64,000 nucleotides of DNA from an uncultured Poribacteria bacterium (GTDB lineage Bacteria > Poribacteria > WGA-4E > WGA-3G): positions 736,001-800,000 of the forward strand of contig OX638351.1 of assembly GCA_951813565.1 (NCBI GenBank), in the 5' to 3' direction. A program made the translations under genes and the position numbers. The notes under the pieces are model-generated. The model made no database searches, had not been told where the DNA came from, and worked only from the letters and a program-made list of their open reading frames with translations. Numbering within the stretch: position 1 is the stretch's first letter; the number at the start of each line of letters is the position of its first letter. Positions 9,896-53,716 of this stretch are shown piece after piece.

Positions 9896-10142
9896 GGATA
9901 TGTAAAGTTTTTGTAGAAATCCGCACAACTCCTATTGTAGGGGCGGGTCTCCGGGGAATGCCGAAAGGCATTCGGACCGTTGATTTGGTGCCTGCCCGTT
10001 GCATGGCACGTCCTGCGCAGTGGCGGGGCACCAAATCAACGGTATGAATGCCTTATGGCATTCCCCGGGACCCCGCCCTACAGTGGGAAACGCCGCGTAA
10101 TCATTGCAAATTGAACCTGTATAACCAAATATTTACACACCC
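9896..10142. mobile_element. MITE with ends matching the IS end at 575..592, carrying an inverted GTAG-REP pair
   Basis: Ends GGATATGTAAAGTTTTTG and (reverse complement) GGGTGTGTAAATATTTGG match the IS end at 16/18 and 15/18 positions. Confidence 0.65.
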
Positions 10143-10167
10143 CCTCAGCAATAACTCAGTTTGGATA

Positions 10168-10196
10168 TTGCGAATTCTGAATAACAGTGATATAAT
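10168..10196 (+). promoter_or_regulatory. extended -10 sigma70 promoter of argG, probably leaderless
   Basis: TTGCGA-17-TATAAT with TG; ATG 6 nt downstream and no SD. Confidence 0.6.
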
Positions 10197-10202
10197 TTAG
10201 TT

Positions 10203-11441
10203 ATGAATATACATCAATTAAAAGGAAAAACCGTCGGCGCAGCGGTCTCAGGCGGTCTTGATAGCTGCACAATTACGAAGTGGTTAGTTGATAACGGTGT
10301 CAACGTTGTCTGCTTTACGGCTGATCTTGGACAGCCCGATGAGCGGGATGTTGAGGAGATTCGGGAACGGATGTTGGCCTGCGGTGCCCAAGAAGCGGTC
10401 ATGGTTGATGCAAAGGATAACCTCGCTGAGGCAGGTATCCGCCTCATCCAATGTCAAGCGATGTATGAAGGCGGATATTGGAACACGACTGGCATCGCTC
10501 GGCATGTTACAGTAAAAGCACTGCTGCCAGAGATGGAAAAGCGCGACATTTCTATTTTAACACATGGGGCAACAGGGCGTGGGAACGATCAAGTTCGATT
10601 TCAACTTGCGACTAACATGCTTAATCCGAATTTTTCTGTCTATGCCCCATGGCGGGATGCCGAATTCCTCAAACACTTCGGCGGCAGAAAAGAGATGATA
10701 GATTTCTGCCAAGAACACGGCTTGCCAATTACAGCGACCCATGAAAAACCATACTCTACAGATGCGAATTTGTTGGGATTAACGCATGAAGCGGGCAGGT
10801 TAGAATCGCTAAAAACACCAGCAGGTTTTATTACACCGGGGATGGGTGTACATCCGAAAGACGCACCAGACGATGTAGAACACTTCACCGTTACATTTGC
10901 ACGGGGAATGCCTGTTGAAGTCAACGGCAGTCCTTGCACACCACTGATGAGTCTGATAGAGGCGAACCGAATTGGCGGACGGAACGGAGTTGGTATCGGG
11001 ATTCATACTGTTGAAAACCGATTTGTCGGGATCAAAAGTCGCGGGGTGTATGAATCACCCGGAATGGAATTGCTTGGCAGATGTTATGAGTTTCTGCTGC
11101 AACTGATTTTAGATAGACGTGCCCGTCGGCATTTTGATGGCGTAGCTTCTACAATCGCTGAACAGATTTATCAAGGCTACTGGTTTGATGCTGCTACGCA
11201 GGCATTGCTGGCATCAATTGAACCTTTGACACATTTGGCAAGTGGCACGATTACGGTTGCACTGTATAAAGGGAATGTTGCTTTTCATGCTGCAGGTGGT
11301 GTTTCGCATTCACTCTATTCTGAAGAAACAGCTTCAATGGAAGCAATTGGCGATTTCGACCACGCGGATTCAGAAGGGTTTTTGGCTGTGCTTGGTGTCG
11401 GTGCACGGGCTTCTGCTATTGCTGGGCAGACAGAGGAATAG
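10203..11441 (+). CDS. argG: argininosuccinate synthase
   Basis: SGGLDS, HGATGRGNDQVRF, VENRFVGIKSRGVYESPG. Confidence 0.96.
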   Translation: MNIHQLKGKTVGAAVSGGLDSCTITKWLVDNGVNVVCFTADLGQPDERDVEEIRERMLACGAQEAVMVDAKDNLAEAGIRLIQCQAMYEGGYWNTTGIARHVTVKALLPEMEKRDISILTHGATGRGNDQVRFQLATNMLNPNFSVYAPWRDAEFLKHFGGRKEMIDFCQEHGLPITATHEKPYSTDANLLGLTHEAGRLESLKTPAGFITPGMGVHPKDAPDDVEHFTVTFARGMPVEVNGSPCTPLMSLIEANRIGGRNGVGIGIHTVENRFVGIKSRGVYESPGMELLGRCYEFLLQLILDRRARRHFDGVASTIAEQIYQGYWFDAATQALLASIEPLTHLASGTITVALYKGNVAFHAAGGVSHSLYSEETASMEAIGDFDHADSEGFLAVLGVGARASAIAGQTEE

Positions 11442-11444
11442 TAT

Positions 11445-11579
11445 TATAGTAGATTTTAGAATTACTTGCACACTTTTGAGCTGTAGGAGGGAACTCCGAT
11501 TCCCGACATTCACAAGAGGTCGCGATTCGGAGATCGCTCCTACAAAAGACGTGTAAACTTATTTTTCTATTCTACTATA
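11445..11579. mobile_element. TATAGT-ended MITE containing a GTAG-REP pair
   Basis: IRs TATAGTAGA.../...TCTACTATA; same family as 30036..30189. Confidence 0.6.
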
Positions 11580-11602
11580 ATCGGTTTTACTTCTTCACTG
11601 AA

Positions 11603-12595
11603 TTAAGGAACTTCAATTTTTGAAAATACCTGCCTGACAATGCTTTCAATGTCAAGTCCTTCCGCCTCTGCTTCATAACTTATGATCACCCGATGTCTTA
11701 GAACATCCATTCCCACTTCATGAATATCTTCAGGTGTAACATATCCGCGCTGAGAGAGAAATGCTCGTGCCCGAGCGGCAAGTGCCAGAAAAATGGTTGC
11801 ACGAGGCGAAGCACCATACTCAATCAGAGGACTCAAATCATCTAATTTATATGCCTCTGGCGCGCGTGTTGCACACACAAGGTCAACAATGTAAGTTTCT
11901 AACTGGTCTGCCATATAGATATCGCGTGTGAGTTCACGAAATCTGATAATATCTTCACAGGAGACCACCTGCTGAATTTCTGGTATATCTTCCGTTGTCA
12001 TCCGGCGAAGGATTTGTAATTCCTCTGAGTGTGATGGGTAGTTAACCTTAACCTTTAGCATAAATCTATCTACTTGTGCTTCGGGAAGTGGGTAAGTGCC
12101 TTCATGCTCAATCGGATTTTGTGTGGCTAAAACGATAAAGGGGTCGTCAAGTGGATAGGTGGTGCCGCCAATCGTAACCTGCCGTTCTTGCATCGCTTCC
12201 AGTAAAGCGCTCTGCACCTTCGCTGGTGCGCGGTTTATTTCATCTGCGAGGACAACGTTCGCGAAAATGGGACCTGTTTTGGTATAGAACTCGCTTTTTT
12301 GTTGGTCGTAAATCAAAGTGCCGATGAGGTCTGCTGGGAGCAGGTCAGGCGTGAATTGAAGTCGGTTGAAAGAAGCATCAATCGTTTTTGCAAGTGCTGC
12401 GATAGCGGTGGTCTTTGCAAGTCCAGGGACACCTTCCAGCAAAACATGCCCGTTACAAAGCAATCCAATAATCAAGCCTTCAAGCAGTGCGCGTTGTCCA
12501 ACGATGATTTTGCCTGCCTCATCCAGGATTTGCTGTATGAGACTGCTATCGGCTTGGATGCGGGCATTCATTGCCTCTAAATCGTAGTTTTGCAT
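11603..12595 (-). CDS. MoxR family AAA+ ATPase
   Basis: LLEGVPGLAKT, LADEINRAPAKVQSALLEAM, ATQNPIEHEGTYPLPEAQVDRF. Confidence 0.95.
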   Translation of the reverse strand: MQNYDLEAMNARIQADSSLIQQILDEAGKIIVGQRALLEGLIIGLLCNGHVLLEGVPGLAKTTAIAALAKTIDASFNRLQFTPDLLPADLIGTLIYDQQKSEFYTKTGPIFANVVLADEINRAPAKVQSALLEAMQERQVTIGGTTYPLDDPFIVLATQNPIEHEGTYPLPEAQVDRFMLKVKVNYPSHSEELQILRRMTTEDIPEIQQVVSCEDIIRFRELTRDIYMADQLETYIVDLVCATRAPEAYKLDDLSPLIEYGASPRATIFLALAARARAFLSQRGYVTPEDIHEVGMDVLRHRVIISYEAEAEGLDIESIVRQVFSKIEVP

Positions 12596-12602
12596 ATTAT
12601 AA

Positions 12603-12686
12603 TGGCTATCGGTTGTCAGTTTTCAGAGGAGGGGTTTGATAAAACAAATCTCTTTCTGACTGCTGACCGCTGATTACTGACTGCTA
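12603..12686. repeat. short heptamer tandem repeats (CTGACTG-like) in inverted arms
   Basis: CTGACTG CTGACCG CTGATTA CTGACTG at 12656..12683, with a degenerate complementary arm at 12603..12626. Confidence 0.55.
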
Positions 12687-14045
12687 TTACGTGAAGAAAG
12701 GCTGTGTTTCCCCTTCCTGAAAAGACTGCTCAAGCCAGGGGTCTTTGGTTTTCTGCCTGAATTCAATGACCTTTCGGCGCATTTCGTTTACTGTGTCTTG
12801 TAATTCCGCAACATCAATCAGGTTTTGGGATTCTGCTGGGTCACTCTGCATATCAAACAACGCTTCACGACTTTGATGCACAAAATCTTCCCGTTGTCGC
12901 TCTCCCAACTTCTGAATGTTATCATTTCGCACGGCTGTCCATGAAATAGAACGGAACAGGTCGCTCGGAAGTGGTGTTTCTAACTGATATGCCAAATTGC
13001 GGACATACTTATATCTTCGGCCACGCAATACCCGATATGGATAGTAGTTGGTTACTTCGTGGAAGCAGTGAGAGTAATATGTTTCTTCCCATTGTCCGTT
13101 GCCGGGATGGGGACTGTCGTCTTCAAGAATAGATAGCAATGACCTACCGGGGAGCGCATCTTCTCCATCAGGGTGAGAGACACCGCACCAGTCTAATATG
13201 GTTGGGCAGAAATCAACCCAATTGACAAGTGCCTGATTGCGGAGTGCACGCCGCTGTTGTGTGGGACTGGCAATAAGCAACGGACAGTGATGTCCACTAT
13301 CAAAACTGGATGCTTTTGCGCCGGGAAACGGCATCGCATGGTCTGTTGTTACAAAGACGAGTGTATCATCTGCACGTCCAGAAGTGTCAAGTGCATCTAA
13401 AGCGGCACCGACAACAGCATCCCATCGCGAGACACTTTCATAATAGTCGGCAAGGTCTTCGCGCACGGCAGGAACATCTGGTAGGAAATTTGGCACAATT
13501 ATCTCATCAGGGCTGTAGGAACCCGGCTCTATCCCAGCATGCTCCCGATCATTTCCAAATCCCTTGCCAGCCCGATGCGGATAGGTGCATCCAATATGCA
13601 AATAAAATGGTGTCCCCGTGTTTTGTGCAAAGAATTGTTCAATTCTGTCCGCTACTTCCACAGGACTACGGGGGTTAACCTTTGGTTCATAATCAAAAGG
13701 GTAAACACTCTTAGGTTCAACATGCTTTTTTCCAATACAGGCAGTAGCAAATCCGTGTGCTTTTAGAATTCTTGGGACAGACTGCATGTGTTCATGCGTG
13801 CGGAATCCGTGAATGCCGTGGCAGTGCCCATATTGCCCGTGTGTGTGGCTATGTTGCCCCGTGAGAATACATGCGCGGCTTACAGCACAGGAGGGACTTG
13901 TGCAGAATCCGTAATCAAAAACAACACCGCGCTCTGCAAATTCATCAATACGAGGTGTTCTGATAACCTCATTACCGTAACATCTTGCGATGCGACTCCA
14001 ATCGTCCGCAATAACGAACATAACACTTTTATGGAAATTTTTCAT
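12687..14045 (-). CDS. formylglycine-dependent sulfatase (sulfamidase-like)
   Basis: IADD, SPSCAVSRACILTG, IGKKH, TTDHAMPFPGAK. Confidence 0.9.
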   Translation of the reverse strand: MKNFHKSVMFVIADDWSRIARCYGNEVIRTPRIDEFAERGVVFDYGFCTSPSCAVSRACILTGQHSHTHGQYGHCHGIHGFRTHEHMQSVPRILKAHGFATACIGKKHVEPKSVYPFDYEPKVNPRSPVEVADRIEQFFAQNTGTPFYLHIGCTYPHRAGKGFGNDREHAGIEPGSYSPDEIIVPNFLPDVPAVREDLADYYESVSRWDAVVGAALDALDTSGRADDTLVFVTTDHAMPFPGAKASSFDSGHHCPLLIASPTQQRRALRNQALVNWVDFCPTILDWCGVSHPDGEDALPGRSLLSILEDDSPHPGNGQWEETYYSHCFHEVTNYYPYRVLRGRRYKYVRNLAYQLETPLPSDLFRSISWTAVRNDNIQKLGERQREDFVHQSREALFDMQSDPAESQNLIDVAELQDTVNEMRRKVIEFRQKTKDPWLEQSFQEGETQPFFT

Positions 14046-14162
14046 AGTTTCCTGACTCAATCCTTTTTTGTGGAGGCATTTACGATTTTCGAGTATTTTT
14101 GTCAATGAAAAAGGCGGTGGGCATTATACACAATACCTACCACCTCTGCTATAACGAGAGTG

Positions 14163-14656
14163 TTACTTATCTTCGCTTTCAAGTGTTTCATCTGCCCAAT
14201 CTTCTTCGGTGTAGTTAAGTCCATGTTTCTCACAGAAATGTTTGAAGCGTGCGCGCTCTTTTTGTTGTGTTTCCGCTACAGCTTCTGCTACAGCCTTCGG
14301 CACAGCTTCTGCTACAGCTTCTGCCACAGCTTTCTGTGCTGCCTTCTCAATAATCTCTGGCATTTTCTTTCTCAATTCCCAATACATTATCATCCTCCTC
14401 ATGTGTGGAAGTATCATAAAAAATACGGCTTCAACAAATCCAAACCGAGCCAATGAGGAAAGCGTTGATCTAAACGCAACAATTTCGGTTGATCTACAAG
14501 AAACTCCCAAGTCGTGATGCCCACTGTTGCTACGCAAAAGATAATACCGTAAATTAGGAGCGATATGTTATATTTCCTGCGCGGAATTAACATTCCAAGC
14601 ACGGATACCGTATCATCTTCTCCGAGCAGTTCGGAGAACCAGTTTCTATCTTTCAA
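14163..14656 (-). pseudogene. small membrane protein with AVAE helical repeats, split across two frames (probable frameshift near 14490); the C-terminal part has its own RBS and ATG (14387)
   Basis: ORF 14414..14656 carries TM1; the overlapping frame 14163..14537 carries TM2, GAGGAGG-ATG and 12-bp repeats encoding AVAE. Confidence 0.5.
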
Positions 14657-14780
14657 AATGCTCTCTCATTCTGTCTTTTTAACTCAACACGTCCTTCTCT
14701 ATGTGATTCTCTAAACCGGCTTGCTAATTTCTCCATAGCACTATTGTAACTTCTTATGTTGTGATTGTCAAGGAAAATGC

Positions 14781-17102
14781 TTACACCAACCCGCCCCGTT
14801 TCCGTAAGAACCACTCAAGACCGAGTAGCATAAGGATCATACCGAAAATCAGCGGTAGATCCCAGATATCAACATCAGTTATCTGTGATGTTGCACTCTC
14901 CACAAGTGAAATTTGGTTAACTAATTGGTCTGCCTCTTCAATAGGGTAATATTTGCCGCCGCTCCTGTCTGCAAGGTTTGTGAGGAGTGAGACATTGAGT
15001 GCTGCATCACTAAACTCTGCATAAGAAGGTTTCACCTCAAAAAGTGCCTGCTGTTTGCCGAGGTTTTCGCCATTAAGGGTCCCCGTTGCTGTGACGGTAT
15101 ATTCACCAAACCGTCCCGGAATAAATCGAGCGGTGTATAAACCATCTTTGCCTAATACCTGTTCAAGTGGAAGTTCCGTTCGTGTACCAGTTTCGTCAAC
15201 AATGATTGCGCGCAACTTCGCTTTATTCGTTAATTCAAAGGTTTTATCCATTGCGGTGACCTCAATTACAACGGGTTCCTTCAATGTATATTCAGTCTTC
15301 GCAATATCAAGTTTGAGAGCAGCTTTTGGTGCGGTTGTCAACCATTTTGCCATCTGCCGCCAGAAACGTTCATTACTGTCATCTTCGGACGGCATGCCCA
15401 ACTGCCATGGCGCTGAATTATTCGGGGTAAACACCATGACCCGTCCTGCATTAAAATTATGAGTTGCGATGAGGATGCGCTTCCCAAATTCATTTCGCTC
15501 ACTTGGATGTTCGGCGAGGACCGTTGCCCCTGCTTTCGCGCGTTTGACTTTGCTATAACCAAAAAGTTCCGACATCTTGTTCCAACGTTGCAGGTTTTCA
15601 GCGGAGTTACCTGCCAATTCCATCAACGGGTCCGATTTACCTTCTGTTGTCAGTTGCAACTTGAAGCCTTCTGCTCTTGGCATCTGGGATGGTGGAAGGG
15701 TAGACACTGGTGGTGGAGGGGTGCCTAATTCTAATTCAACAGGAAGTAATTCGGCGATTGGTGTGTTGAGATATGAATCAGTTACTTCCGAACTACCTAT
15801 GGAAAACGTCCCACCTAACATTAAAAAACCGCCGCCGCGTGTGCGAACGAATTCAACTGTATTTTCAAGCTGCGTTCGCGTGAATTCGGAAGCCGAAACA
15901 TTACCGAAAATGATTGCGTCAAAATTGAAGAGAACATCTTTTGAATCCGGATAGAATTTGAAGTCTTCGTCTGCACCACCTTGTGTGCCCCCGAAACTCT
16001 GTTCACTTGTCTTATACCGGTCAGTTAAGACGATATTCGGATCGTCTTGCAAGGCACGTTTGATAAATTTAAAACCAGAATAAGGTCTGGAAACGAATAG
16101 TATCTTTACACGTTTCGTAGGGGCGACTTTCAAAATAAAAGTTTTGGTGTTGTTTTGTGGGATTGCTTCGTCTGCTTCGGTGAGTACATGCACCTCATAT
16201 TTTTGGGTGCCTGGCTGGCGCGGGGTAAATCTGAGTGGGACTCTTGTTGTGTCACTTTTAAATGAGACCGGAACTGTTTCAAGAATCCTTCCATTCTCTA
16301 TTAATTGGATTGTAACTTTCTTTTGGGCGTTACCTGTACGTCTCACCGTCGCGGATATTTCGACGGGAAAATCTTCCTCTGCGGTCCGGGGGGTATCCAC
16401 CTTGACCAATTCTATGTCAGGGACACCTTTTTCTGATCCAATACCGACGGTATGGATAGGTGCTTTTCTTTCTCGGACTTGCATCACAAATTTTGTTATG
16501 TTTGTACCACTTCGGTCAACTCCATCGGTGCAAAGTACAATACCAGAAAGTGGGATGCCTTGTAAGTCTTCAAGTGCTTCATTTATTGCGTTCGGGATAT
16601 TTGTGTTTTCCCCTTTTGCGCTCGGTAATGGTTCATTTTCAATTCGTTTTGCTTCTGTGTCGAATCCAAAGAGTCTGACCTTGAATTTGTTCGCGTTCAG
16701 TTTGTCAATAAGCCCGCCGCCATCTTCAGGATTTTCACCAAAGAGCAGCTGATTAGTTCGATTCAATCGCGATTCACCATCATCTGAATCGGTAATCTGC
16801 ATACTCTTGGAACGGTCAACCATTACTAAAAGGTAGGAATCATCAGGATTGTTTTGATAGATTGTCAAGAGAGGTTTGAGTAGACAGAAGGCGAGGAAAC
16901 ACAAGACAATTGTGCGGAGAACAATGAGAAATCCGCGGAACACGCGTCCAGTTCGACCTCTTGCGCTCCGATATGCCCAAATAGTTGCTGCAACAAGCGC
17001 GACCATTAGGACGAATATAAGAAGTCCCGGTATTGGCACGCCGAACGAGAAATCCCCCTCCCGAAAAACGTCAATCGGGTACTTCATAAGTTGTTCAAAC
17101 AT
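14781..17102 (-). CDS. membrane-anchored vWA + GATase1-like domain protein (MoxR-partner type)
   Basis: Two N-terminal TMs, DRSKSM MIDAS, CTDG, GGGFLMLGG, C-terminal EWFLRKRGGLV. Confidence 0.85.
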   Translation of the reverse strand: MFEQLMKYPIDVFREGDFSFGVPIPGLLIFVLMVALVAATIWAYRSARGRTGRVFRGFLIVLRTIVLCFLAFCLLKPLLTIYQNNPDDSYLLVMVDRSKSMQITDSDDGESRLNRTNQLLFGENPEDGGGLIDKLNANKFKVRLFGFDTEAKRIENEPLPSAKGENTNIPNAINEALEDLQGIPLSGIVLCTDGVDRSGTNITKFVMQVRERKAPIHTVGIGSEKGVPDIELVKVDTPRTAEEDFPVEISATVRRTGNAQKKVTIQLIENGRILETVPVSFKSDTTRVPLRFTPRQPGTQKYEVHVLTEADEAIPQNNTKTFILKVAPTKRVKILFVSRPYSGFKFIKRALQDDPNIVLTDRYKTSEQSFGGTQGGADEDFKFYPDSKDVLFNFDAIIFGNVSASEFTRTQLENTVEFVRTRGGGFLMLGGTFSIGSSEVTDSYLNTPIAELLPVELELGTPPPPVSTLPPSQMPRAEGFKLQLTTEGKSDPLMELAGNSAENLQRWNKMSELFGYSKVKRAKAGATVLAEHPSERNEFGKRILIATHNFNAGRVMVFTPNNSAPWQLGMPSEDDSNERFWRQMAKWLTTAPKAALKLDIAKTEYTLKEPVVIEVTAMDKTFELTNKAKLRAIIVDETGTRTELPLEQVLGKDGLYTARFIPGRFGEYTVTATGTLNGENLGKQQALFEVKPSYAEFSDAALNVSLLTNLADRSGGKYYPIEEADQLVNQISLVESATSQITDVDIWDLPLIFGMILMLLGLEWFLRKRGGLV

Positions 17103-17346
17103 AACAGTATGATACCTCTATAAGCAGAATAACAGCGAATTAGGGAGGCGTATTTAATCTCGACAAATTTGGCTTCGCTGTTTGTATAATTATATTATAC
17201 ACGGGAGTAGCAAATGAGTTCAACCTATTTTGAATCATATAGGTTTAATTTATGAAGAGAACCTCGCGTTTCTCTACTGTAGGGCGAGGTCTCTGTGCCT
17301 CGCCATGTTCAACATGTCAAAGCAATGGGTCGGACCAGAGAACACC

Positions 17347-17519
17347 CATAACTGTCAATTTAGCGGTTCGCCACCTTAGTAGGCGCGTTTTGATGAAGAT
17401 TAATTTTTTAATTCGGTATTATTTTCTTAAACTTCATCAAAACGCGCCTATCTTTGGGTAATAAATCGGGCTTAGAAAGCCCTCCCACAAGAAAATCAGG
17501 CACTAAATTGATGGCAATG
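17347..17519. mobile_element. IS231-like (IS4 family) MITE with 19-bp target duplication, inserted in a REP
   Basis: IRs CATAACTGTCAATTTAG / CTAAATTGATGGCAATG; flanks GGT(C/G)GGACCAGAGAACACC at 17328..17346 and 17520..17538. Confidence 0.75.
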
Positions 17520-17587
17520 GGTGGGACCAGAGAACACCCTATGATAAAGGTTGACCTATCTGAAAGGAAACTCAGACTCACAAGAGT

Positions 17588-18571
17588 TTAGTCAGGTAAA
17601 CGAATTCGCTGCCCGGTATGTGCAGATTCATGCAATGCATCAATGACGCGCATATTTCCGAGCGCGTCTGCAATGGGCAAGCGGAGCGGTGTGCCGTTTT
17701 GGACTGCTTCACACAGATTTAAAATCTCAGCAGCATAAGGATTCACACCGTTAACGCTGAAAGTTTCTCCATTGACGGTAAAGTGTGATTCTCCTTCACC
17801 GTTTCCCCAAGCCTTCTGGACAAAGAGAGTTCCTTTTGTGCCAGCAACTTCATAACATTCACGCCATGTCCAACCAAAACTGCAGTCAAATTGTCCGGTG
17901 ATACCATCGCCAAAGTCTAATGTTCCGATGAGGGTTTCCCAGACGTTGTTAATCGGTTCATACTTGCCTGTAGCCCACACAGACTGCGGTTCTTGTCCCA
18001 TGACATAGCGAATAATGTTGATACAGTAGCACCCTAAATCCATCACAGCACCGCCACCGAGGTCACCTCTTAACCGCCAATTTGTTCTATCGGTGAGTCC
18101 AGTTGAAAAAGTGGAGCGTGCATAGCGGACCTCCCCGATTGCGCCCTCCTCAACCTTTTCCTGGACCGCCAACGTTAACGGATGATGCCGATACATAAAC
18201 GCTTCCATCAAGATGATGTTGGCACGTTCTGTAACTTGAATCATCTGCTCAAGTTGCGATGTATTGACAGCAATCGGCTTTTCAACGAGGATTCCCTTGA
18301 CACCACAGCGTACTGCTTCCAAGACATTTTTAAGATGGCTTGAAGGCCAAGTGGCAACAACGAGAATATCAGGGTTCTGTTTCTCCAGCATCTGCCGAAG
18401 GTCGTTGTAAGTATTCTCAACGTTATATTCTGTGGCAAAACGCGAGAGCGACTCAAATTTCTCATCGCATGCACCGACAATCTCAATCTCTGACACATTT
18501 CGCCAGGCGTTTCCGTGCGCGTGTGAAATTCCACCGCACCCAACGATTGCCACGCGATATTTTTTCGCCAT
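17588..18571 (-). CDS. Gfo/Idh/MocA family oxidoreductase
   Basis: IVGCGGIS, ILVEKPI, GGGAVMDLGCY. Confidence 0.92.
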   Translation of the reverse strand: MAKKYRVAIVGCGGISHAHGNAWRNVSEIEIVGACDEKFESLSRFATEYNVENTYNDLRQMLEKQNPDILVVATWPSSHLKNVLEAVRCGVKGILVEKPIAVNTSQLEQMIQVTERANIILMEAFMYRHHPLTLAVQEKVEEGAIGEVRYARSTFSTGLTDRTNWRLRGDLGGGAVMDLGCYCINIIRYVMGQEPQSVWATGKYEPINNVWETLIGTLDFGDGITGQFDCSFGWTWRECYEVAGTKGTLFVQKAWGNGEGESHFTVNGETFSVNGVNPYAAEILNLCEAVQNGTPLRLPIADALGNMRVIDALHESAHTGQRIRLPD

Positions 18572-18580
18572 TATTTTACC

Positions 18581-19552: not shown

Positions 19553-19643
19553 ATTTTACCTTTCTGTTCGCAAATTCAAAGCTGCAGATTTTCTTATGTT
19601 TTGGATACTGCAGCTTGTTGTTATGCGCCGCATCTAACGACGT

Positions 19644-20858: not shown

Positions 20859-20895
20859 TTTCTTTCAACTTCCTAAGAATTGGAAATCGCTCCTA

Positions 20896-29593: not shown

Positions 29594-29742
29594 TATCTCA
29601 TAAACCACTTGTAGGGCGAGGTCCCTGTGCCTCGCCATGTCTTGAGGATGGAACATCGGGCGGGCACAGGGACCCGCCCCTACAATAGAAGTGAACTTCA
29701 GTGCGAACAATGAGTAAACTCAAAAATCGGATTTATGAGATA
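29594..29742. mobile_element. MITE with TATCTCATAAA IRs carrying an inverted GTAG-REP pair
   Basis: TATCTCATAAA/TTTATGAGATA; internal GTAGGGCGAGG... and ...CCCGCCCCTAC. Confidence 0.6.
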
Positions 29743-30849: not shown

Positions 30850-30875
30850 TGTAACGCGAGTTCAATTATACCGTA

Positions 30876-31191
30876 ACGTGAATTTGATAAATCCCGTAGG
30901 GAATCAACACCGAATGCGCCTATGGCATTCGGTGGGGTAGAACGAAAATGGGCAATAAAAAACAGCCTCTAAAAAGAGGTTGTTGACCCATTTGAGGTCT
31001 ACATTTCTGAAAAAATAAGTGAAACCCAACTCTTTAGGACTGTCAAGATGGTTGAATTGTTGGGTTTCGCTTCGCTCTACCCATAGGCGTCAATTTAAGG
31101 TATATCCAGCATTTTTTCTTAAGTTGACAGTTATGGGTTTCGCTTCGCTCTACCCAACCTATTATATTCAATTTAATTATCAAACTCACGT
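30876..31191. mobile_element. composite IS982-like MITE with nested REP, IS231-like mini-MITE (31082..31135) and AATCAAC module
   Basis: IRs ACGTGAATTTGATAA/TTATCAAACTCACGT; inverted homologue at 48115..48553; 19-bp duplication at 31063..31081 and 31136..31154. Confidence 0.75.
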
Positions 31192-31376
31192 TACCTGTAG
31201 TAAATCAAGCCTCATGTACTTATAGTTTTCGTCATATTAACGCCTTGTGCGTGGCACGCTGCAGGACACAGAGAACACTGCCCTACCATAGAAGTAAATA
31301 ATCGGGCTTGCAAAGCCCTCCTACAAGATATGGTGTGGTTAATGTCAAAAACTTTACATGTAGATTAAAATAAAAC

Positions 31377-40654: not shown

Positions 40655-40662
40655 TTTATGCT

Positions 40663-40983: not shown

Positions 40984-40987
40984 AAAA

Positions 40988-41314: not shown

Positions 41315-41367
41315 AATAGAACAGCGTCTGTTCACGACAAATACTAAATATCAATAATCCCGTTAAA

Positions 41368-42492: not shown

Positions 42493-42526
42493 GGATTTCC
42501 GCGTTCTTGGTTGTAAGGAAAGAATC

Positions 42527-42862: not shown

Positions 42863-43000
42863 GCTAACTCCTTATTAGAAGGCTAAAATTGTCCAAAACC
42901 CATACACATATTATAACACATATTTGATGAAAACCCATCTGTTTTTGATTTAGGGTATCTAAAAGTTTGTCTGAATCTCGGATTATGGCTTTGGGTGGAA

Positions 43001-43177
43001 TTGTCTGAACAGAGATTTACAAGATTATAGGATTAGCAGGATTATTCTTATGGTATGCAATTATTCTCAAAATCTGTATTCTCTGTATTTATCGGGTTTT
43101 TGTTGTCTGGTTCAAAAACAGTTCTGTTGCCAACATTCTTGGAAATCTTGTAATCCTGAAAATCCCGGTTCAGACAA
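43001..43177. repeat. inverted repeat element TTGTCTGAAC...GTTCAGACAA with internal AGGATT-type short repeats
   Basis: Complementary arms at 43001..43045 and 43140..43177; related half-copies at 42967 and 46723. Confidence 0.6.
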
Positions 43178-43450
43178 AAGGCGAGCACAAAGACTCCGAT
43201 GAATACCACACGTGCATTCGCCGTTGATTCCCTACGCCATTTATCGAATTTACGTCTTATTAGCTAATTTTATGCACCCTTTCGGTTTCAAAATAGTATC
43301 TTATAATAATTAAAAGCATGGCATGTGTTTATCAATAGTCCTGCTAAATCAATGCCAATTCCAAGTGATTCATTAGCGGGAACATTTTACGCTAATGAAG
43401 TGTGAATATAGTATACACCGATCTTATCAAAACGATATTGGAGTGTTTAG

Positions 43451-46400: not shown

Positions 46401-46579
46401 GTCTGTCCGGACAAAAGGTGTATTTATTATCCGAGCATTCTGGGACATGGCAGCAGGTTACACCTGAAATTACACATTCTATTTCCACTTTTGAGGTGGA
46501 TGGGGATACGGTATACGTTGGGACACAAGGGAAGGGCGTGTTCCGATTTACACTTGATGATTCGGGGAACGGTAAGTAG
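43451..46579 (+). CDS. ECF sigma-70 factor fused via a TM helix to a large BNR/Asp-box beta-propeller region
   Basis: Sigma2 (AEEITQDAF, FAGWLYVIA), sigma4 (LPESERTVITLYY...IKSRLRRAR), TM, repeated SxDxGxTW. Confidence 0.9.
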   Translation: MVDDDVLLIRKILLGDDTAFSTLVEKYRKGVHAFAWRKIGDFHHAEEITQDAFIQVYKNLSTLRNPNQFAGWLYVIANRLCIKWKEKRKITTQSLEGTSMSEINASSYTKYISEQRDREATEKRLEIVNKLLKKLPESERTVITLYYLGEMTAKEIGKFLGVSINTIKSRLRRARERLKEEEAMIRENINCVQFPTQTTANIMKEISQLKPTAPSGNNPLVPIGISAASALIVLLLMGVGMQYLVHFQKPYTLEATSEPTIKIVDAQLVLESPVETAVRNQVGRSDAIGRNSGKGQQPDTPLFAAAQADDRVKSDAKSEWTQTKGPEGGAIGTLFTTTRGDVYAGTLNGLYRFSDDEQAWTLINTIKGPPLPLYDGGWWWPVAESQSADILYLATDIAILESFDRGETWETLCKGTNINRDTDVYAVHPVGLVIADNAVDITIYLAYRNGVFRTDDVGKTWTPLLAGLENTKIRTIAAIQDTVFAGTYKGLYRLNNNVWEQVLIDPENVQNKTLYIAALVVSENNLYVAAKQVEKSRSTGIGIDIALDTLDINLELAPFKQKQTTWSLYHTNDMGDSWHVITPKLDTADNKDNYIRDHLSALYRTVVIESPSIHLAASGEKIMVVVGKYHFYSINGGKTWTHLDDISNADHVSGVVLLNDNTVYRSGLSGIHRTTDCGASWHKSDTGIINTFIHQLIYMNNTLYANIGPLRVLSSTDSGDSWTPVAGDTHKYASLVEYDGALYATNESYSALRVFRFSHDENRFIEIPDVPVIGEKKPPNPNKVVVETVTFGEEEKRPIDRPLNPDDLADINPRNKGLTSTDHNIDINVFHVLPFGSFAASRTAYYVEYEHKLFRWKPDTTEWYDTGLVDTGQIDTNFENPGNNGFVNNFKLAVSKNTVYVGMRDGRLMRSFDEGDTWKHAAADLPFHVENYKQIIFVGQTVYVATDRGVALSINGTDWQAIMDTQGEILVVDMFAVDRSKVYGLSGQKVYLLSEHSGTWQQVTPEITHSISTFEVDGDTVYVGTQGKGVFRFTLDDSGNGK

Positions 46580-46783
46580 ACCGTATCTCATGAATCATCT
46601 GTAGGGCGGGGTCTCTGTGCCCCCCTGTGTAAGACACATGCCAAGCAACGGGCGGGCACCAAATCAAGAAATCAACGCTACAAATGCCTTTAAGGATTTG
46701 CAGCGTTGATTTCTTGATTTGGTCTAATCCGAGATTCAGATTTCACCCTTGACACAACTCTTAATTTCTGCGAAAATAACCCC

Positions 46784-47296
46784 ATGCCACGCAAAAACAA
46801 GATTCTCAATATCGGCGATACAGCGCCCTCATTTTCACTGCCATCACATCGGCGGCAAACTGTTTCACTTGCGTCTTACCGCGACGAACAACACGTGATT
46901 TTGACATTTTTTAGAGGGACATGGTGACCAAACAGCCGCCGCCAGTTGGCTGCATTACAAGAACATGCGAATGATTATGCAGAACATAACGCTACACTGA
47001 TCGCTATTGCGGGACAGTGGCCTCGTGAATTACGTGGTTTTGCCGAGCGGAACGGAATTACGTACCCACTATTGGTTGACAAAGATCGGAGCGTTATCAA
47101 GAGTTATGGCGTCTACCACTGGCTCAGTTTTGAGGCTTACAACATCGCCAGACCAGCCACCTTTCTCATTGACAAACTCGGGACAATTCGGTATATGTAT
47201 ATTGGGTCGCATCAATTCGATTTGGTGGATCATGCTGAGGTGCTTGAATGCTTGAAATCAATAGATAGTGGCAAAAATGATTTTGAATTGCAGTGA
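46784..47296 (+). CDS. AhpC/TSA (peroxiredoxin-like) probable selenoprotein, Sec at codon 48 (TGA 46925..46927)
   Basis: MPRKNKILNIGDTAPSFSLP...VILTFFRGTW-TGA-PNSRRQL is in frame with the downstream ORF containing ARPATFLIDKLGTIRY; the TGA sits at the catalytic Cys position. Confidence 0.85.
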
Positions 47297-47478
47297 AAAT
47301 ATGGTATACTAATGTATGCTTAGCATTGTAGCAGATGTATCAGGTTTCGTTAAAGTCATGTAAGAGAAAGCAGAAGCACATCCTTTGGGAACAGTAAGGT
47401 CTTCATGGGTTTCATAAGTCTGGTATTTCTTGAGATATACATTACACCGAAATATTGCCTCTGTTTAATGGAATAACC

Positions 47479-47976
47479 ATGAAGAAACTTATATTCTCTT
47501 TCTCAGGGCGAATTAATCGTAAAACGTTTTGGTTATGTTCAATTTTGTGGTTAATCTGCTTTCTCTTTTATATAACATTTATCGCGTTTCTTTATGGTGC
47601 GGGATACATATCTGTGTTTTTTTATAACGTCTTATTTATATGGGGAATGTTAACAAATGCGCCATTTTGTATTAAACGATACCAAGATAGAGGTAAACCC
47701 GCAGGGAAGCTGCTAAAATGGTCAATTATTTGGGGGTCTGTTGCTTATATCGCAAATTTTTCAGGTAAAATTGCAAAGCAAACGGAACAGTTCCAAATTA
47801 CTGGTGAATATAATCTTGAACCAGTGAATCCTTATGATGATCCTTTAGGAACTTTTGCGGGAATATTTTTTTTAGGTGTCTTTGTTTTTATCATAATTGC
47901 TTGTGGATGTCGTAAAGGAATGGATGGACCAAATCAATACGGTGAAAGGCCTAATTTCTTTTCAGTGAGTAATTAA
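47479..47976 (+). CDS. DUF805-like membrane protein
   Basis: FSFSGRINRKTFW, IKRYQDRG, GPNQYG. Confidence 0.8.
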   Translation: MKKLIFSFSGRINRKTFWLCSILWLICFLFYITFIAFLYGAGYISVFFYNVLFIWGMLTNAPFCIKRYQDRGKPAGKLLKWSIIWGSVAYIANFSGKIAKQTEQFQITGEYNLEPVNPYDDPLGTFAGIFFLGVFVFIIIACGCRKGMDGPNQYGERPNFFSVSN

Positions 47977-48114
47977 ATAACCAGGACCTACGCACAAGCG
48001 GTAGGCGCTGAATCGTGGCAAGTCATTGGACTTGCCACGATTCAGCGTGTTCAGTTGAATTTAGGTAATGAACAAACTACTTAATGAACAAACTACTTAT
48101 AGAGAACTTACGTA

Positions 48115-48553
48115 ACGTGAGTTTGATAATTAGATTGAATATAGATGTAGGTTGGGTAGAGCGAAGCGAAACCCAAATCAACGGTATGAATGCCTGTTGG
48201 CATTCCCCGGGTGTCAATTTAAGAACAAATGGTTGAATTATCTCTTGTGGGAGGGGTTTGTAACCCCGATTTTTAAGATTCAAGCAGTTAAATCCAAATC
48301 AACGCCAAATGCGCGTATGGCATTTGGCGGGGTTGAAAACCCCTCCCACAAGAAGATGAATCCTTAAGTTTACACCTATGGGTAGAGCGAAGCGAAACCT
48401 AACAATTCAACCGTCTTGAGAGTAATAAAGAGTTAGGTTTCACTTATTTTTTCGGAAATATCGACCCCAAATAGGTCAACAACCTCTCTTTAGGGTCTGT
48501 TTCTATTGTAGATTTCCGTTCTACCCAACCTACGGGATTTATCAAACTCACGT
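48115..48553. mobile_element. composite IS982-like MITE (TSD TACGTA) with nested IS231-like MITE (48174..48380), REPs and two AATCAAC modules
   Basis: Perfect IR ACGTGAGTTTGATAA; TACGTA at 48109..48114 and 48554..48559; 19-bp duplication GGTAGAGCGAAGCGAAACC. Confidence 0.8.
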
Positions 48554-48712
48554 TACGTAAAATAAGGGGACCATCGTTGGTCTAAATGCCCCAGTAGAAA
48601 CATTATCAATTTGAGGATAGTGAGGTCTATAGTTTTATTCGGAACACAATGATACAACAAACCAAAGGCTAAACAACGGTTTTCGATTAGAAACAGATTT
48701 CAGTTTATTACG

Positions 48713-49816
48713 ATGGATGAAGGGCATGTAGCGTTTATGCAACGCGCATTAACTTTGGCAGAACAAGGAAGGGGACGCACGAGTCCGAATCCGCTTGTCG
48801 GTGCGGTGATTGTTAATGCTGGAAAAATCATTGGTGAAGGATATCACCAGAAAGCGGGTGGACCGCACGCGGAAATTCACGCATTGCACGCAGCTGGAGA
48901 GGAAGCAAAAGGTGGAACACTCTATGTAAATCTTGAACCTTGTTGTCATTGGGGACGAACACCACCTTGCACTGATGCACTCATCCAAGCGGGAATCACA
49001 CATGTTTATGCCGCACATTTGGACCCAAATCCGAAGGTTGCAGGAAAAGGCATCCAACAGTTAGAGGAAGCAGATATAACAGTTAACGTAGGTGTGTGTG
49101 CAGAAGCAGCGGAAAAACTGAATGAAATCTACATAAAACATGTGCGAACGGGTTACCCGTTTGTGATACTGAAAATGGCGATGAGTTTGGACGGGAAAAT
49201 CGCAACGTCCACCGGTGAATCGCAATGGATTACATCTTCAGCATCACGGCAAAAAGCGCATAAAATACGGGATGAGGTAGACGCCATTCTGGTCGGAATT
49301 GGGACAATTACAAGCGATAATCCTGCTCTAACGACAAGACTACCGAACAAACAGGGGAAAGACGCAACGCGGATTGTTTTAGATTCACACGGACGAACAC
49401 CTACATCAGCAAAGATATTCAATTCGTTGAGTGAGGCAGGTGTTATTATTGCTGTTACACCACAAGCATCTGCCAAAAACATTGCTACTTTAGAAAAGGC
49501 GGGTGCTGAAGTCATAACCACATCTGTGAAAGGTGGACGGGTCTGTTTTAAAACGTTGATGAAGACATTAGGTGCACGCGGCATAACAAGTGTATTGGTA
49601 GAGGGTGGTGGTAAAGTCAACGCAAGTGCATTAGCGTCAGGTGTTGTGGATAAGGCAATATGTTTTGTGGCACCTAAATTCATCGGAGGCAAAGAAGCAC
49701 CAGGTGTCCTTGATGGTGAAGGCATTAAACGTTTGGCAGATGCACCGGAATTAGAACGAGTCACTATCACCCAATTTGACTGTGATCTATTGATTGAGGG
49801 GTATTTCGTTAAATAA
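48713..49816 (+). CDS. ribD: bifunctional riboflavin deaminase/reductase
   Basis: PHAE, LEPCCHWGRTPPC, SLDGKIA, VEGGG. Confidence 0.97.
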   Translation: MDEGHVAFMQRALTLAEQGRGRTSPNPLVGAVIVNAGKIIGEGYHQKAGGPHAEIHALHAAGEEAKGGTLYVNLEPCCHWGRTPPCTDALIQAGITHVYAAHLDPNPKVAGKGIQQLEEADITVNVGVCAEAAEKLNEIYIKHVRTGYPFVILKMAMSLDGKIATSTGESQWITSSASRQKAHKIRDEVDAILVGIGTITSDNPALTTRLPNKQGKDATRIVLDSHGRTPTSAKIFNSLSEAGVIIAVTPQASAKNIATLEKAGAEVITTSVKGGRVCFKTLMKTLGARGITSVLVEGGGKVNASALASGVVDKAICFVAPKFIGGKEAPGVLDGEGIKRLADAPELERVTITQFDCDLLIEGYFVK

Positions 49817-50460
49817 TGTTTACCGGTATTATTGAAGAAATTGGCACAATTACCGAAGTACAGCCACAATCCAACGGTATAACTGTCAAAATTAAGGCAG
49901 AAACGGTGTTGGAAGATGCCAAAGTAGGTGATAGTATCGCTGTTGACGGCCCGTGCTTAACAGTGCGCGATCTTGAACAAGAAGCATTCGTAGCTGATAT
50001 CAGCGAAGAGACCCTCCGCAGAACAACTTTACGTTCATGTAAAGTCGGTACACGTGTCAATCTGGAACGTTCGCTTCGGTTAGGTGATCGTATTGGTGGG
50101 CATTTGGTATTAGGTCATGTTGATGAAATTGCGACCATCAGCGGATGGAAAAACGAAGGCAGCTCTTCAATCATGCAGGTAACAGTAAGTCCAAAAGTAA
50201 AACCCTACATCGCCTATAAAGGTTCTATCGCTGTTGATGGCGTAAGTTTAACTATCGCGAACGTGTCCGATAATAAATTTGAGGTGGCACTCATTCCTCA
50301 TACTTTGCAAGTTACAGCCCTTAGCGGAAAACGAAACGGCGATATCGTGAACATTGAAGTTGATGTGATGGCGCGTTATATTGAAACCCTGATGCAAAAC
50401 CAGGTCCCGCCATCGCAGACACTTGATTTAGAATTTTTACAAAAACATGGATATGGTTAA
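49816..50460 (+). CDS. ribE: riboflavin synthase alpha chain
   Basis: MFTGIIEEIG, GDSIAVDG, VNLER. Confidence 0.97.
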   Translation: MFTGIIEEIGTITEVQPQSNGITVKIKAETVLEDAKVGDSIAVDGPCLTVRDLEQEAFVADISEETLRRTTLRSCKVGTRVNLERSLRLGDRIGGHLVLGHVDEIATISGWKNEGSSSIMQVTVSPKVKPYIAYKGSIAVDGVSLTIANVSDNKFEVALIPHTLQVTALSGKRNGDIVNIEVDVMARYIETLMQNQVPPSQTLDLEFLQKHGYG

Positions 50461-50483
50461 GGAACTGAAACCCAAAATACATC

Positions 50484-51701
50484 ATGAAATTTAGTACCAT
50501 TCCCGAAGCCCTCTCTGCTATTAAAGCTGGTGAGATGATTATTGTTGTTGACGAACCTGACCGCGAAAATGAAGGCGACCTCATTATGGCGGCGGAAAAG
50601 GTAACAGCAGAATCCATCAACTTTATGGCAAAGCACGGGCGCGGATTGATTTGCCTTCCCACCTGTTCCGAACGTCTCGCTGAACTCCAACTAAATCCGA
50701 TGGTCTCGGATAACACCGCACAGATGCAGACTGCGTTTACTGTGACGATTGACGCGAAGGAAGTCACCACTGGAATTTCTGCCCAAGAAAGAGCCTACAC
50801 TATTCGGAAATTTGTTGATGAAAACGCTGTTCCATCAGATTTTGTGAGACCAGGACATATCTTTCCATTAGAAGCTAAACCGGGAGGCGTGCTACGCCGC
50901 GCAGGACACACGGAAGCAACGGTTGATTTGGCACAACTCGCAGGATTATACCCAGCAGGTGTTTTATGTGAAGTCCTCAACGATGATGGCACGATGGCAC
51001 GTGTCCCTGAACTATTTGAATTTGCACAACACCACGACCTCAAAATTATCACTATTTCTGACCTTATCGCATATCGCCGCCGCACCGAAACCCTGATAAA
51101 ACGGATTTCAACAGCGGAAATTCCGACTGTTCACGGAGAATTCAAACTTCATGCTTATGAAAGCAACGTTGATGGGTCGCCAACACCGGGTGAGCCAACT
51201 GATACACACGTTGCGTTAACTAAAGGACAAATTGTGGATGGAGGTCCTATATTAGTTCGGGTGCATTCGCAATGTTTAACAGGCGATGTTTTCGGTTCAC
51301 TCCGTTGTGATTGTGGTGAACAACTCCAAATAGCGCTTCAAAACATTGAGAAAGAGGGTAGAGGCGTGCTGCTGTATATGCGTCAGGAAGGTAGAGGCAT
51401 GGGACTCAAAGACAAAATTCGCGCGTATCACCTCCAAGACAATGAAGGTTTAGACACTGTTGAAGCGAACGAACGCCTCGGATTTCCGCCAGATTTACGC
51501 GATTACGGTATAGGTGCGCAAATACTTGTTGATTTAGGCGTTGAAAAGATGCGGCTTATGACGAATAACCCTCACAAAGTCAAAGGGTTATCAGGTTATG
51601 GGTTGGAAATCGTTGAACAAATTCCCTTGCAGACGACCCCGAATCCATATAACAAGCGTTATCTACAGACAAAACGAACAAAATTGGGACATCTCCTCTA
51701 A
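50484..51701 (+). CDS. ribBA: DHBP synthase / GTP cyclohydrolase II
   Basis: [34 protein letters not shown]. Confidence 0.97.
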
Positions 51702-51707
51702 AATATA

Positions 51708-52057
51708 CTATAGTTTGGACAATTCTTGTCTCGTGGAAGTTGGGTTTTAACGGAAATCTATTTTTTTAAGAGTTTCGAATATCAGTGGAACACAGCGAAA
51801 ATTGCCGCACTCCAGCGGAGTGCTATGTCTATAGAAAACGTTATGCCACATTCTTGCACTCCAGCGGAGTGCTATGTGTCGGAAATCACATGCCGCTCCG
51901 CTGGAGCGGATATATCGGTTCATAAAGTGGCTATAAACATTTTGCTCCGCTTGAACAAAGAGGGTTCCATTATGTCCGTTATGTGTTGATTGGGTGAAAT
52001 AAGTGGTGAACTAATTTCTTATATCATCTCACGTTTTTAAAATTGCCCAAACTATAG
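51708..52057. mobile_element. MITE inside the rib operon, with internal GCACTCCAGCGGAGTGC palindromes
   Basis: IRs CTATAGTTTGGACAATT / AATTGCCCAAACTATAG; palindrome twice plus the inverted variant CCGCTCCGCTGGAGCGG. Confidence 0.7.
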
Positions 52058-52094
52058 CGAATTATAAGCGAATTTTATTGTAGGAACGATAACT

Positions 52095-52574
52095 ATGCCA
52101 AACATATATGAAGGTGACCTAAATAGCAGCGGACTCAAATTCGGAATCATTGTAAGTCGGTTTAACAGTTTTATCACGACAAAACTTTTGGATGGCGCAC
52201 TTGATGCTATTAAACGCCATGGCGGCAACTTAGATGAAGTAGACGTTGTCTGGATTCCTGGTGCTTTTGAAACGCCAAGTATCGCCAAACAACTTGCCGA
52301 AAGTGAGCGATACGATGCACTTATCTGTATTGGTGCTGTTATTCGCGGTGCTACACCACACTTTGATTATGTTGCGGGTGAAAGTGCCAAAGGCATCGCG
52401 CACGTTTCTCTAAATACTGGTATTCCGATTATCTATGGAATTATTACCACAGATACGATTGAACAAGCGATTGAACGCGCAGGTACAAAAGCCGGGAACA
52501 AAGGTGCTGAAGCAGCTGTAACCGCAATTGAAATGGCAAACCTTCGCAAACAACTGCAAACGCTTGATTCTTGA
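52095..52574 (+). CDS. ribH: 6,7-dimethyl-8-ribityllumazine synthase
   Basis: [25 protein letters not shown]. Confidence 0.97.
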
Positions 52575-52696
52575 AGCACTTGTGATACTAAAATTAACCT
52601 AATTTGCAGAGCAGGGTCTCCATGCTTCATCCTGCGGGGAGGCGAAAAATCCTTGCACTATTTGAAACGCAAACACTTTTGATGGAGATTAACCCA

Positions 52697-53341
52697 ATGC
52701 AATATGACAAAAACAGATACCAAATATGGGCACTACCTCACCCTCTGGTCTTATTCTGGATATTAAACCCGGCTGCGATAATCAATGAACTGATTTTGGG
52801 GCAACGGTTGCCAAAGATAATGTTGATAGACGCAGAAAGCGATGCACCTTTTGCGGAACGTAGTTATATTCCGTGTCCTCACTGCGAAACACTAAATGAT
52901 GGTCGTATATGGGGAAAAGGAAATGCACTCGGACATTGGTTTGGGTTTGTTTGTCCAAATTGCCATCAAATAATTCCGTGTCTATGGAGTTTATATAGTT
53001 ATGCTGTCTTGGCGGTTACTTATCCACTGTGGTATTTTCCTGCTCGGTTCTTCCGCGATAGATGGATAGCGAAAGAAAAAGCAAGATTGGCAACAGTTCT
53101 TGAACGTCCTTTAATTCAAGCGAATGAAGTAAATTGGCTTTTAATAGGCATTTCCTGTTTGGGTGGATTCATGTGGTTGATTATGGGGTTTATTCCGGAG
53201 GTGCGGAATGTCTTGAATGGAGAAGAATGGGATTTTATAATGTTGTTTGTTATTCAGTTGCCACTTTGGTTGGTAACAGGCTTCTGCTGGGGCTTGTTTA
53301 TGCGTATTTTCATGAATAAGAAGGGGAAGGGGAGACGCTAA
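52697..53341 (+). CDS. hypothetical membrane protein with two CxxC pairs (zinc ribbon)
   Basis: CPHC and CPNC motifs, hydrophobic helices; RBS GGAG. Confidence 0.7.
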   Translation: MQYDKNRYQIWALPHPLVLFWILNPAAIINELILGQRLPKIMLIDAESDAPFAERSYIPCPHCETLNDGRIWGKGNALGHWFGFVCPNCHQIIPCLWSLYSYAVLAVTYPLWYFPARFFRDRWIAKEKARLATVLERPLIQANEVNWLLIGISCLGGFMWLIMGFIPEVRNVLNGEEWDFIMLFVIQLPLWLVTGFCWGLFMRIFMNKKGKGRR

Positions 53342-53369
53342 ATTCCCGCGCTAACCGTAAAGTGAGCGC

Positions 53370-53486
53370 GGCACTGACCGTCCCGATAACCTACAACTGC
53401 TCTGCGGTGCGTGTAATTCAACGAAAGGCAACGGCACGCAGGCACAACTCATCGCCCGATTGAAAGAACAAGGTGTGTTACAGTAA
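53370..53486 (+). pseudogene. C-terminal remnant of an HNH endonuclease
   Basis: GTDRPDNLQLLCGACNSTKGNGTQAQLIARLKEQGVLQ*, no start and no N-terminal His region. Confidence 0.7.
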
Positions 53487-53512
53487 ACAGATGTGGTAGA
53501 AGAAAATGATTG

Positions 53513-53716
53513 CATAGGTGTCAATTTAGTCCCACATTGTAGGACGGGGTCTCTGTGCCCCGCCATCACATAGGACATGCCAGGCAACGGGCGGGCACCA
53601 AATCAACGGTATGAATGCCTTTTGGCATTCCCCGGAGACCCGCCCCTACAATAGGGTAGGGTTTAGTTAAGCAATCACGTAAAAATTTGAAATAAATTCT
53701 TAAGTTGACAGTTATG
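53513..53716. mobile_element. IS231-like MITE carrying a REP pair and an AATCAAC module, directly before hisH
   Basis: CATAGGTGTCAATTTAG / CTTAAGTTGACAGTTATG; degenerate 19-bp flanks that share AAATGATTG. Confidence 0.7.

Follow-up and report, generated by a model that had tools for sequence, protein, structure and literature searches.

Results

The module and its hosts in the window

We study a repeated DNA module of 33–36 bases, an AATCAAC leader followed by a hairpin of 25–27 bases, in a 64,000-nucleotide stretch of an uncultured Poribacteria bacterium (assembly GCA_951813565.1, contig OX638351.1, positions 736,001 to 800,000 of the forward strand). This whole stretch is referred to as the window, and it belongs to a genome that consists of a single contig of 5.43 Mb. 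An initial annotation of the window reported eight copies, each in a repetitive extragenic palindrome (REP) hairpin or at the end of a miniature inverted-repeat transposable element (MITE), and all eight are recovered with the same coordinates and strands. They make up nine of the 26 AATCAAC sites in the window, the double copy at 46660 being counted twice, and seven of the eight fold better than shuffled sequences (z from -2.9 to -11.2); the remaining copy, at 43197, is decayed (z of -0.6). We name the leader forms CA and G after the first bases of the copy.

The first two copies share a REP doublet (9937..10081) that lies 140 bases from a tRNA gene. Both have the CA leader and the bulged-stem variant. 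The copy at 9952..9987 (minus strand) lies inside a GTAG-footed REP, and the copy at 10032..10067 (plus strand) lies in the partner REP, where one host base (A) has been lost relative to the empty allele. An empty doublet of the same host family occurs at 29611..29683, with the empty site at 29658–29683. This is one of two empty forms that had been reported from the window, and the other, at 48519, exists as well: the right end (48519–48533, minus strand) of a MITE at 48114..48554 is the empty form of the site filled at 30901. There, a G-leader copy with an A-T foot variant (30901..30934, plus strand) lies close to the left end of a MITE at 30875..31192, at a junction common to 20 copies. The two MITEs belong to one family, which has 16-base terminal inverted repeats and contains REPs as well as modules.

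Three further CA-leader copies lie on the plus strand. The copy at 48174..48209 stands behind a REP within a MITE, and four host bases are absent relative to the empty allele; the copy at 48295..48329 is a clean C|G insertion in a REP, for which the genome holds 80 empty alleles. The third (53599..53634, bulged-stem variant) also lies in a REP. The empty alleles of its host number 111 in an A form and 4 in a G form genome-wide, and because both forms exist, the copy can be a clean C|G insertion into the G form. The decayed copy (43197..43230, minus strand) has the G leader and lies in a decayed REP, with two host bases replaced. Finally, a palindrome of 62 bases at 46660..46721 reads leader-hairpin-leader, with doubled leaders. 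Different host repeats flank it, a REP on the left and a GGATT tandem repeat on the right, so that its right end departs from the annotated pattern of REP and MITE hosts. It likely arose by a deletion between two copies in inverted orientation, which recombination through the palindromic stem would produce.

Anatomy and copy number

A strict search finds 623 simple modules in the genome, compared with none in the reversed and none in the complemented genome. When nested copies are included, there are 947 leaders with a repeated 18-mer, which we group into 568 clusters. The 3' end is fixed: the terminal base is C in 574 of the 623 copies, and the base that follows is G in 484, while in 118 the module is followed by CA, the start of the next module. 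The 5' end varies by one or two bases (CA 378, G 200, TA 30, other 15). Hairpins take two shapes: in one, a G bulges out below the loop, and in the other, two bases bulge out low in the stem. The tetranucleotide at the hairpin foot is AACG, with one variant, AACA.

Covariation of the stems, as described for the window, extends to the whole genome. Counting by script, we find two-sided changes at 6 of 9 stem positions among the 27 arm pairs each seen at least twice, a result that is partly built in by the search itself, which required at least 7 of 9 stem pairs. The Watson-Crick fraction of the stems is 0.897, compared with 0.758 ± 0.019 in shuffled arms, and none of 2000 shuffles is as high; the search filter and self-correction of hairpins could each inflate this signal.

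Junctions and empty alleles

We sort copies into clusters by the context of their insertion, some clusters being chimeric as a result of nesting. The CA-leader form has C|G at 41 of 52 clusters; among the 33 clusters of the G-leader form, the junction is T|G in 16, C|G in 6 and G|G in 6. Conservation at the insertion site is limited to C at position -1 (90%), G at +1 (88%) and G at +2 (67%), and the cut site shows no preference for a fold.

Of 247 distinct non-tandem contexts, 49 have a clean empty allele, 47 have only non-clean ones, and 151 have no empty allele on hand. The clean alleles comprise 45 of the CA form, 44 of them at C|G, plus 4 at A|G. The non-clean alleles mostly differ by 0–5 bases, and in a recurrent case, seen in several REP families, the module stands in place of the A of the GTAG foot. 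Thus the replacement of 1–4 nucleotides, which the initial annotation gave as a property of all insertions, is real for a minority, in which 1–5 bases are replaced, and does not hold as a rule. The absence of target duplication stands: we find none at the window copies, in the empty-allele pairs or in the gene insertions described below. The module also has no terminal inverted repeats, and so it lacks both hallmarks of a MITE. Contigs from four sequencing runs contain no clean empty allele of any window copy; these contigs break at repeats and are therefore uninformative on present activity.

Insertion in repeats and in genes

The module lies predominantly in repeats. Both flanks are repeated at 474 of the 623 copies and neither flank at 44; at 2795 random intergenic places the corresponding counts are 582 and 1582. 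Copies overcount events, since the 20 filled copies with the 30901 junction are one insertion that was copied with the MITE. Part of the enrichment is therefore co-amplification with the host repeat, and part, we infer, is the loss of frame-breaking insertions in genes. The cores of long open reading frames (ORFs) hold 5 of the 623 simple copies, 2 of which are false matches.

Confinement to other repeats, which holds in the window, does not hold in the genome. Besides the 44 copies with two non-repeated flanks, four genes on the genome contig (G000:C1) contain an exact in-frame module of 33 or 36 bases that is absent in relatives: a lipoate-ligase-like gene (4511630), ogg, which encodes 8-oxoguanine glycosylase (4444600), an ISAs1 transposase gene (3913161) and pstA (1292617). 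Counting best-scoring orthologue loci only, the lipoate-ligase-like gene is filled at 3 of 25 loci and empty at 22, with a gap of exactly 36 bases, and several of the empty orthologues read C|G at the site. The ISAs1 transposase is filled at 4 of 12 loci (36, 36, 36 and 35 bases) and empty at 8; pstA is filled at 2 of 5 (33 bases) and empty at 3; ogg is filled at 12 of 14 (33 bases, one decayed) and empty at 2. The four proteins thereby carry in-frame inserts of 11–12 residues. These filled and empty pairs show independent insertion without target duplication. Lengths that are multiples of three are to be expected, because the genes were found as intact ORFs, and they would fit purifying selection. 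Four genomes differ in the hairpin variant that fills the ISAs1 site, reflecting either repeated insertion or conversion between copies. No coding insertion occurs among 199 modules in 131 loci drawn nearly all from other genomes.

In one relative (genome G001), all 15 inspected copies have a GGATT tandem repeat on the left, with the CA leader after C, and no GTAG REP. Degenerate GGATT tandem repeats act as host of the module in a genome that has no Y1 match.

Nesting, arrays and a sister unit

The module inserts into itself, both within its loop and at the C|G of its 3' end, and a doubled leader reads as an insertion at the module's own foot. Head-to-tail arrays reach nine copies. We also find a sister unit, which has the same 25-base hairpin core without the leader and ends in an ATG tail; it accounts for 101 of 126 leaderless hairpins. 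The sister unit sits mostly in the module's 3' arm, at times nested two deep, and joins it through bases shared with that arm. It occurs genome-wide, for example in arrays at G000:C1 917761 and 3536219. Iterative excision resolves simple nests but not those that contain sister units.

Distribution across genomes

With a narrow search pattern, matches are obtained in 35 of 36 genomes of the genus, as against none of 24 genomes from other families. With a wider pattern, the window genome yields 615 matches and all 39 other genomes of the genus yield 12–524; in the sister genus, all 65 genomes yield 1–241, the lowest of these being at chance level, given 0–8 matches in other families and 0–5 in reversed controls. 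Decayed copies occur in three further genera of the family. A single copy assigned to another family lies on a contig that encodes several proteins 86–95% like those of the window genome, and that contig is probably misbinned. In a collection of named genomes, of which 16 of 64 parts were scanned with the strict pattern, 76 of the 80 loci listed, out of 111, are from Poribacteria and 4 from unnamed bacteria.

Two runs that contain the window are labelled as sponge metagenomes. Runs from four studies yield contigs in which the repeats occur together with their flanks, and the 43197 copy is spanned by one contig; such independent contigs rule out an assembly artefact. Viral contigs provide 88 loci, 14 of them with at least 8 of 9 stem pairs (12 of these being one coding sequence), and none has the body and junctions of the family. 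At ten places in low-copy genomes we find no master locus and no linked gene.

Candidate genes for mobilisation

The window genome contains ten matches to Y1 enzymes: five TnpA of the IS200/IS605 family of insertion sequences (IS), two class-1.2-like proteins and three REP-associated tyrosine transposases (RAYTs). Across the genus we examined 70 Y1/RAYT loci, which are part of the Y1 loci of the family, and judged the flanking repeat families for those genes whose flanks were listed. Each such gene has its own REP family, and it is these REP families that host the module. The 70 loci contain 13 strict modules, either embedded in other repeats or arranged as a symmetric double; none is a free pair around a gene. 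REPtrons, that is, RAYT genes with their own repeats, are unusually varied in this genus, with several RAYT groups and GTAG-, GTAA- or GTAC-footed repeats. The class-1.2-like genes, which have been described as generally without terminal structures, are flanked here by palindromes of their own.

Several other gene classes were considered. The module is unlike the ends of the 20 listed among 37 TnpB-type elements, a comparison confined to IS200/IS605 elements of the window genome. Alongside the 37 TnpB-type ORFs, many copies of one IS605 family have lost tnpA and kept both ends (for example at G000:C1 185879, 888296 and 989642). One RRXRR/IscB gene, with no module at its ends, encodes a protein of 518 amino acids with RRXRR/HNH domains and adjoins a long CRISPR array (G000:C1:2828763-2832400). 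There are two cas1 genes, and the module near one of them belongs to a MITE; at G000:C1:3988991-3996000, a reverse transcriptase (RT) gene and a separate cas1 adjoin a long CRISPR array, and a MITE that carries the module lies between them. A motif scan for additional HUH proteins returned 27 ORFs, none both new and linked to the module, and those listed among 311 multi-copy ORFs are ordinary IS families.

Discussion

A very small mobile unit

We conclude that the module is a real, mobile and very small DNA unit, likely among the smallest mobile DNAs. The proposal of a minimal unit moved in trans is well supported by independent junctions in dozens of hosts, by nested and tandem self-insertion and by the filled and empty pairs in four genes. 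Contrary evidence was sought on two counts, descent from one fixed composite repeat and a match to the IS200/IS605 ends of this genome, and neither was observed. Its description as a hyperparasite that targets other repeats is too narrow, since single-copy genes and a non-palindromic tandem repeat also contain the module.

Relation to known systems

We found no description of the module in the literature that we searched, a search that left subscription papers and supplements outside its range. The closest likeness is to the small dispersed repeats (SDRs) of Nostoc and its relatives, reportedly described by Elhai et al. 2008 as repeats of about 20–27 bases and said to nest in themselves, in tandem repeats and in minitransposons. 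Repeats of the SDR type are under about 40 bases, dispersed, and kept in structure by compensatory change. The module conforms in size, dispersal and compensatory stem changes, as well as in precise insertion, nesting and embedding in repeats; like the SDRs, it is very short, structured and non-coding, with no known enzyme. It differs from the Nostoc SDRs, as these are described, in its length of 33–36 bases, its phylum, its AATCAAC leader, its C|G target and its in-frame insertions in genes. In the citing literature, of which we draw on excerpts (PMC4390886, PMC5861425, PMC2884548), one such repeat, SDR5, is found inserted between bases 3 and 4 of HIP1 (PMC4390886).

The module also resembles GTAG REPs, their doublets (REPINs) and the associated RAYTs, which share a short 5' tag, a bulged hairpin, high copy number, a mostly intergenic location, tandem arrays and occasional in-frame insertions (PMC3333891, PMC8266576 and PMC6006769); a dinucleotide cut site is a plausible further likeness. 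Unlike them, it is tagged AATCAAC/AACG rather than GTAG/GTGG, it has defined ends and moves as one hairpin, not as a doublet, it has no REPtron in the 70 loci, and it inserts into REPs. It is thus a short, often bulged, high-copy and mostly intergenic hairpin that lacks both the GTAG/GTGG foot and the flanked tnpA-REP gene. CGTC-tagged repeats and the Rickettsia palindromic elements (RPEs) have tagged stems of 8–9 base pairs, loops of 4–5 bases, no linked transposase and in-frame insertions in genes, according to the portion of PMC3733652 on which we rely. By that same account, the module differs in having neither a CGTC tag nor a CCA tail, in occurring as singletons, nests and head-to-tail arrays instead of head-to-head dimers, and in its defined C|G target. 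With IS200/IS605 ends and their non-autonomous derivatives it shares a hairpin and the absence of terminal inverted repeats and of target duplication; unlike them, it has one hairpin rather than two hairpin ends, no tetra- or pentanucleotide target, and no match to the listed local ends. The module therefore fails membership of the GTAG REP/RAYT systems, of the IS200/IS605 derivatives and of the MITEs.

A possible mechanism

We tentatively propose single-strand cutting and joining, in trans, by a hypothetical RAYT-like Y1 HUH enzyme, a reading to which we give somewhat less than an even chance. The substrate would be the folded top strand of the module; a double-stranded circle of 34–36 bases is too short to bend. 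The foot bases AACG would act as a guide selecting C|G, which is the observed target and right junction. According to PMC8266576, bases 3–4 of the guide tetranucleotide pair with the cut dinucleotide, and altering them shifts the cut; by this published GTAG pairing rule, AACG would give C|G. Cutting and rejoining at two nearby sites would yield the minority of insertions that replace 1–5 bases. Each insertion re-creates C|G at its 3' end and carries further C|G sites in its loop, which would account for arrays and nesting, and copies within REPs or MITEs would then multiply along with their hosts.

Several features agree with an enzyme of this kind. Because the module has neither terminal inverted repeats nor target duplication, it fits the anatomy of Y1 substrates, for which both are said to be absent (PMC3333891, PMC6006769; both in extract), and models of TnpA-REP activity include tandem amplification and variable cut sites (PMC3333891, same extract). 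RAYT genes abound in the family, and the REPs that belong to them are the repeats that host the module. Tagged palindromes without a linked transposase are known from the CGTC class (extract of PMC3733652), and since Y1 classes with atypical hairpins exist (extract of PMC6006769), a cognate enzyme could lie outside the 70 loci.

Other results weigh against the RAYT-like enzyme. The pairing of AACG with C|G in cis is the stem foot itself and cannot count as separate evidence. On its left side the CA form has the junction C|C, for which the AACG rule gives no reason, and the base before the cut in the G-leader form is T in 16, C in 7, G in 8 and A in 2 of the 33 clusters. Module strands number 333 and 290, with no readable strand bias, and the GC skew is too weak to locate origin and terminus. 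Nor does the attribution to a Y1 HUH enzyme made in the initial annotation find its gene: at none of the 70 loci does the module flank a HUH, RAYT or TnpA gene as that gene's own repeat. Two near-complete relatives are rich in the module, G023 with 238 matches on its single contig and G001 with 102 on four contigs. Neither has a match to PF01797 (Y1 enzymes) or to PF00078 (RTs), and both would need enzyme loss or a transient donor.

It is important, therefore, to weigh this reading against others. The module may have no dedicated enzyme at all. Where DNA rich in hairpins and repeats is nicked or stalls replication or repair, a host polymerase or repair process could switch template onto a short folded DNA copy and back, each end relying on microhomology of 1–3 bases. 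The fixed 3' end and ragged 5' end would fit such switching, as would the joining of the sister unit through bases shared with the module arm and the different hairpin variants at the filled ISAs1 site in four genomes; it would also suit the abundance of the module in genomes without a Y1 or RT match, and the ten loci of low-copy genomes that show no linked gene. We nevertheless consider it unlikely, if worth serious attention, since the seven-base leader is constant and the bulged stem conserved across about 100 genomes, which suggests that a protein recognises them, and since precise insertion at C|G in single-copy genes, where the site has no hairpin, is hard to obtain by chance switching. 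A short RNA, reverse-transcribed at a nick, is another candidate, and a route through RNA has reportedly been proposed for the Nostoc SDRs. The fixed 3' end, variable 5' end and leaderless forms resemble target-primed copying, and the window genome has two RT genes. One of these, however, is CRISPR-linked and the other stands alone with no module beside it; RT matches occur in 17 of the 39 other genomes of the genus, with none in several of the richest (G034, G006, G023), and 30 RT loci contain no match to the module pattern. All this makes the RNA route distinctly improbable.

A different recombinase, of IS110, IS91 or integron type or a phage HUH protein, might have visited the lineage transiently. 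The lack of target duplication would agree with this, and the symmetric module doubles resemble what we take to be the form of attC sites. REPs are, moreover, known targets of some IS (PMC3333891, in the extract used above). Yet the genome yields no IS110 match, a single weak integron integrase match below the cut-off, and no IS91 match, although control sequences also escaped the IS91 search; the 88 viral loci include no copy of the family, and the junctions fall outside the leader box. Such a visitor is improbable. If, finally, the module had no mobility of its own, and were either a constant component of a small number of composite repeats or a product of misassembly, one would understand why 474 of 623 copies have repeats on both flanks and why many share one junction. 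We regard this as highly improbable: it is already contradicted by the exact insertions in four genes with empty orthologues, the copies fall into 52 and 33 context clusters, and the module recurs in independent assemblies as well as in run contigs of four studies.

A more speculative extension, which we hold to be doubtful, is that the module is a self-guiding, single-hairpin transposon of 33–36 bases with no dedicated host gene. Its foot would pick C|G, its insertion would re-create the target, and a housekeeping or undescribed enzyme would mobilise it; in this way it would have spread through two genera, written inserts of 11–12 residues into proteins and spawned the leaderless sister unit.

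No mover is known for the SDRs or the CGTC repeats, and the present family bears on the question of how repeats of REP size spread as single units. It supplies hundreds of junctions, exact filled and empty gene pairs and about 100 genomes with from 1 to more than 600 copies, together with a sharp prediction, namely that the foot AACG selects C|G. If a Y1 enzyme does join a 34-base unit scarlessly at C|G, this would set a lower bound on the size of a transposing unit and define a compact chemistry of insertion. The module also illustrates one way in which proteins acquire short in-frame inserts.

Other features of the window

An Rfam scan of the window returns three tRNAs and nothing else. From 58750 to 64000, the window contains a long coding-looking stretch without an ORF of matching length; it passes the window end and may be frameshifted.

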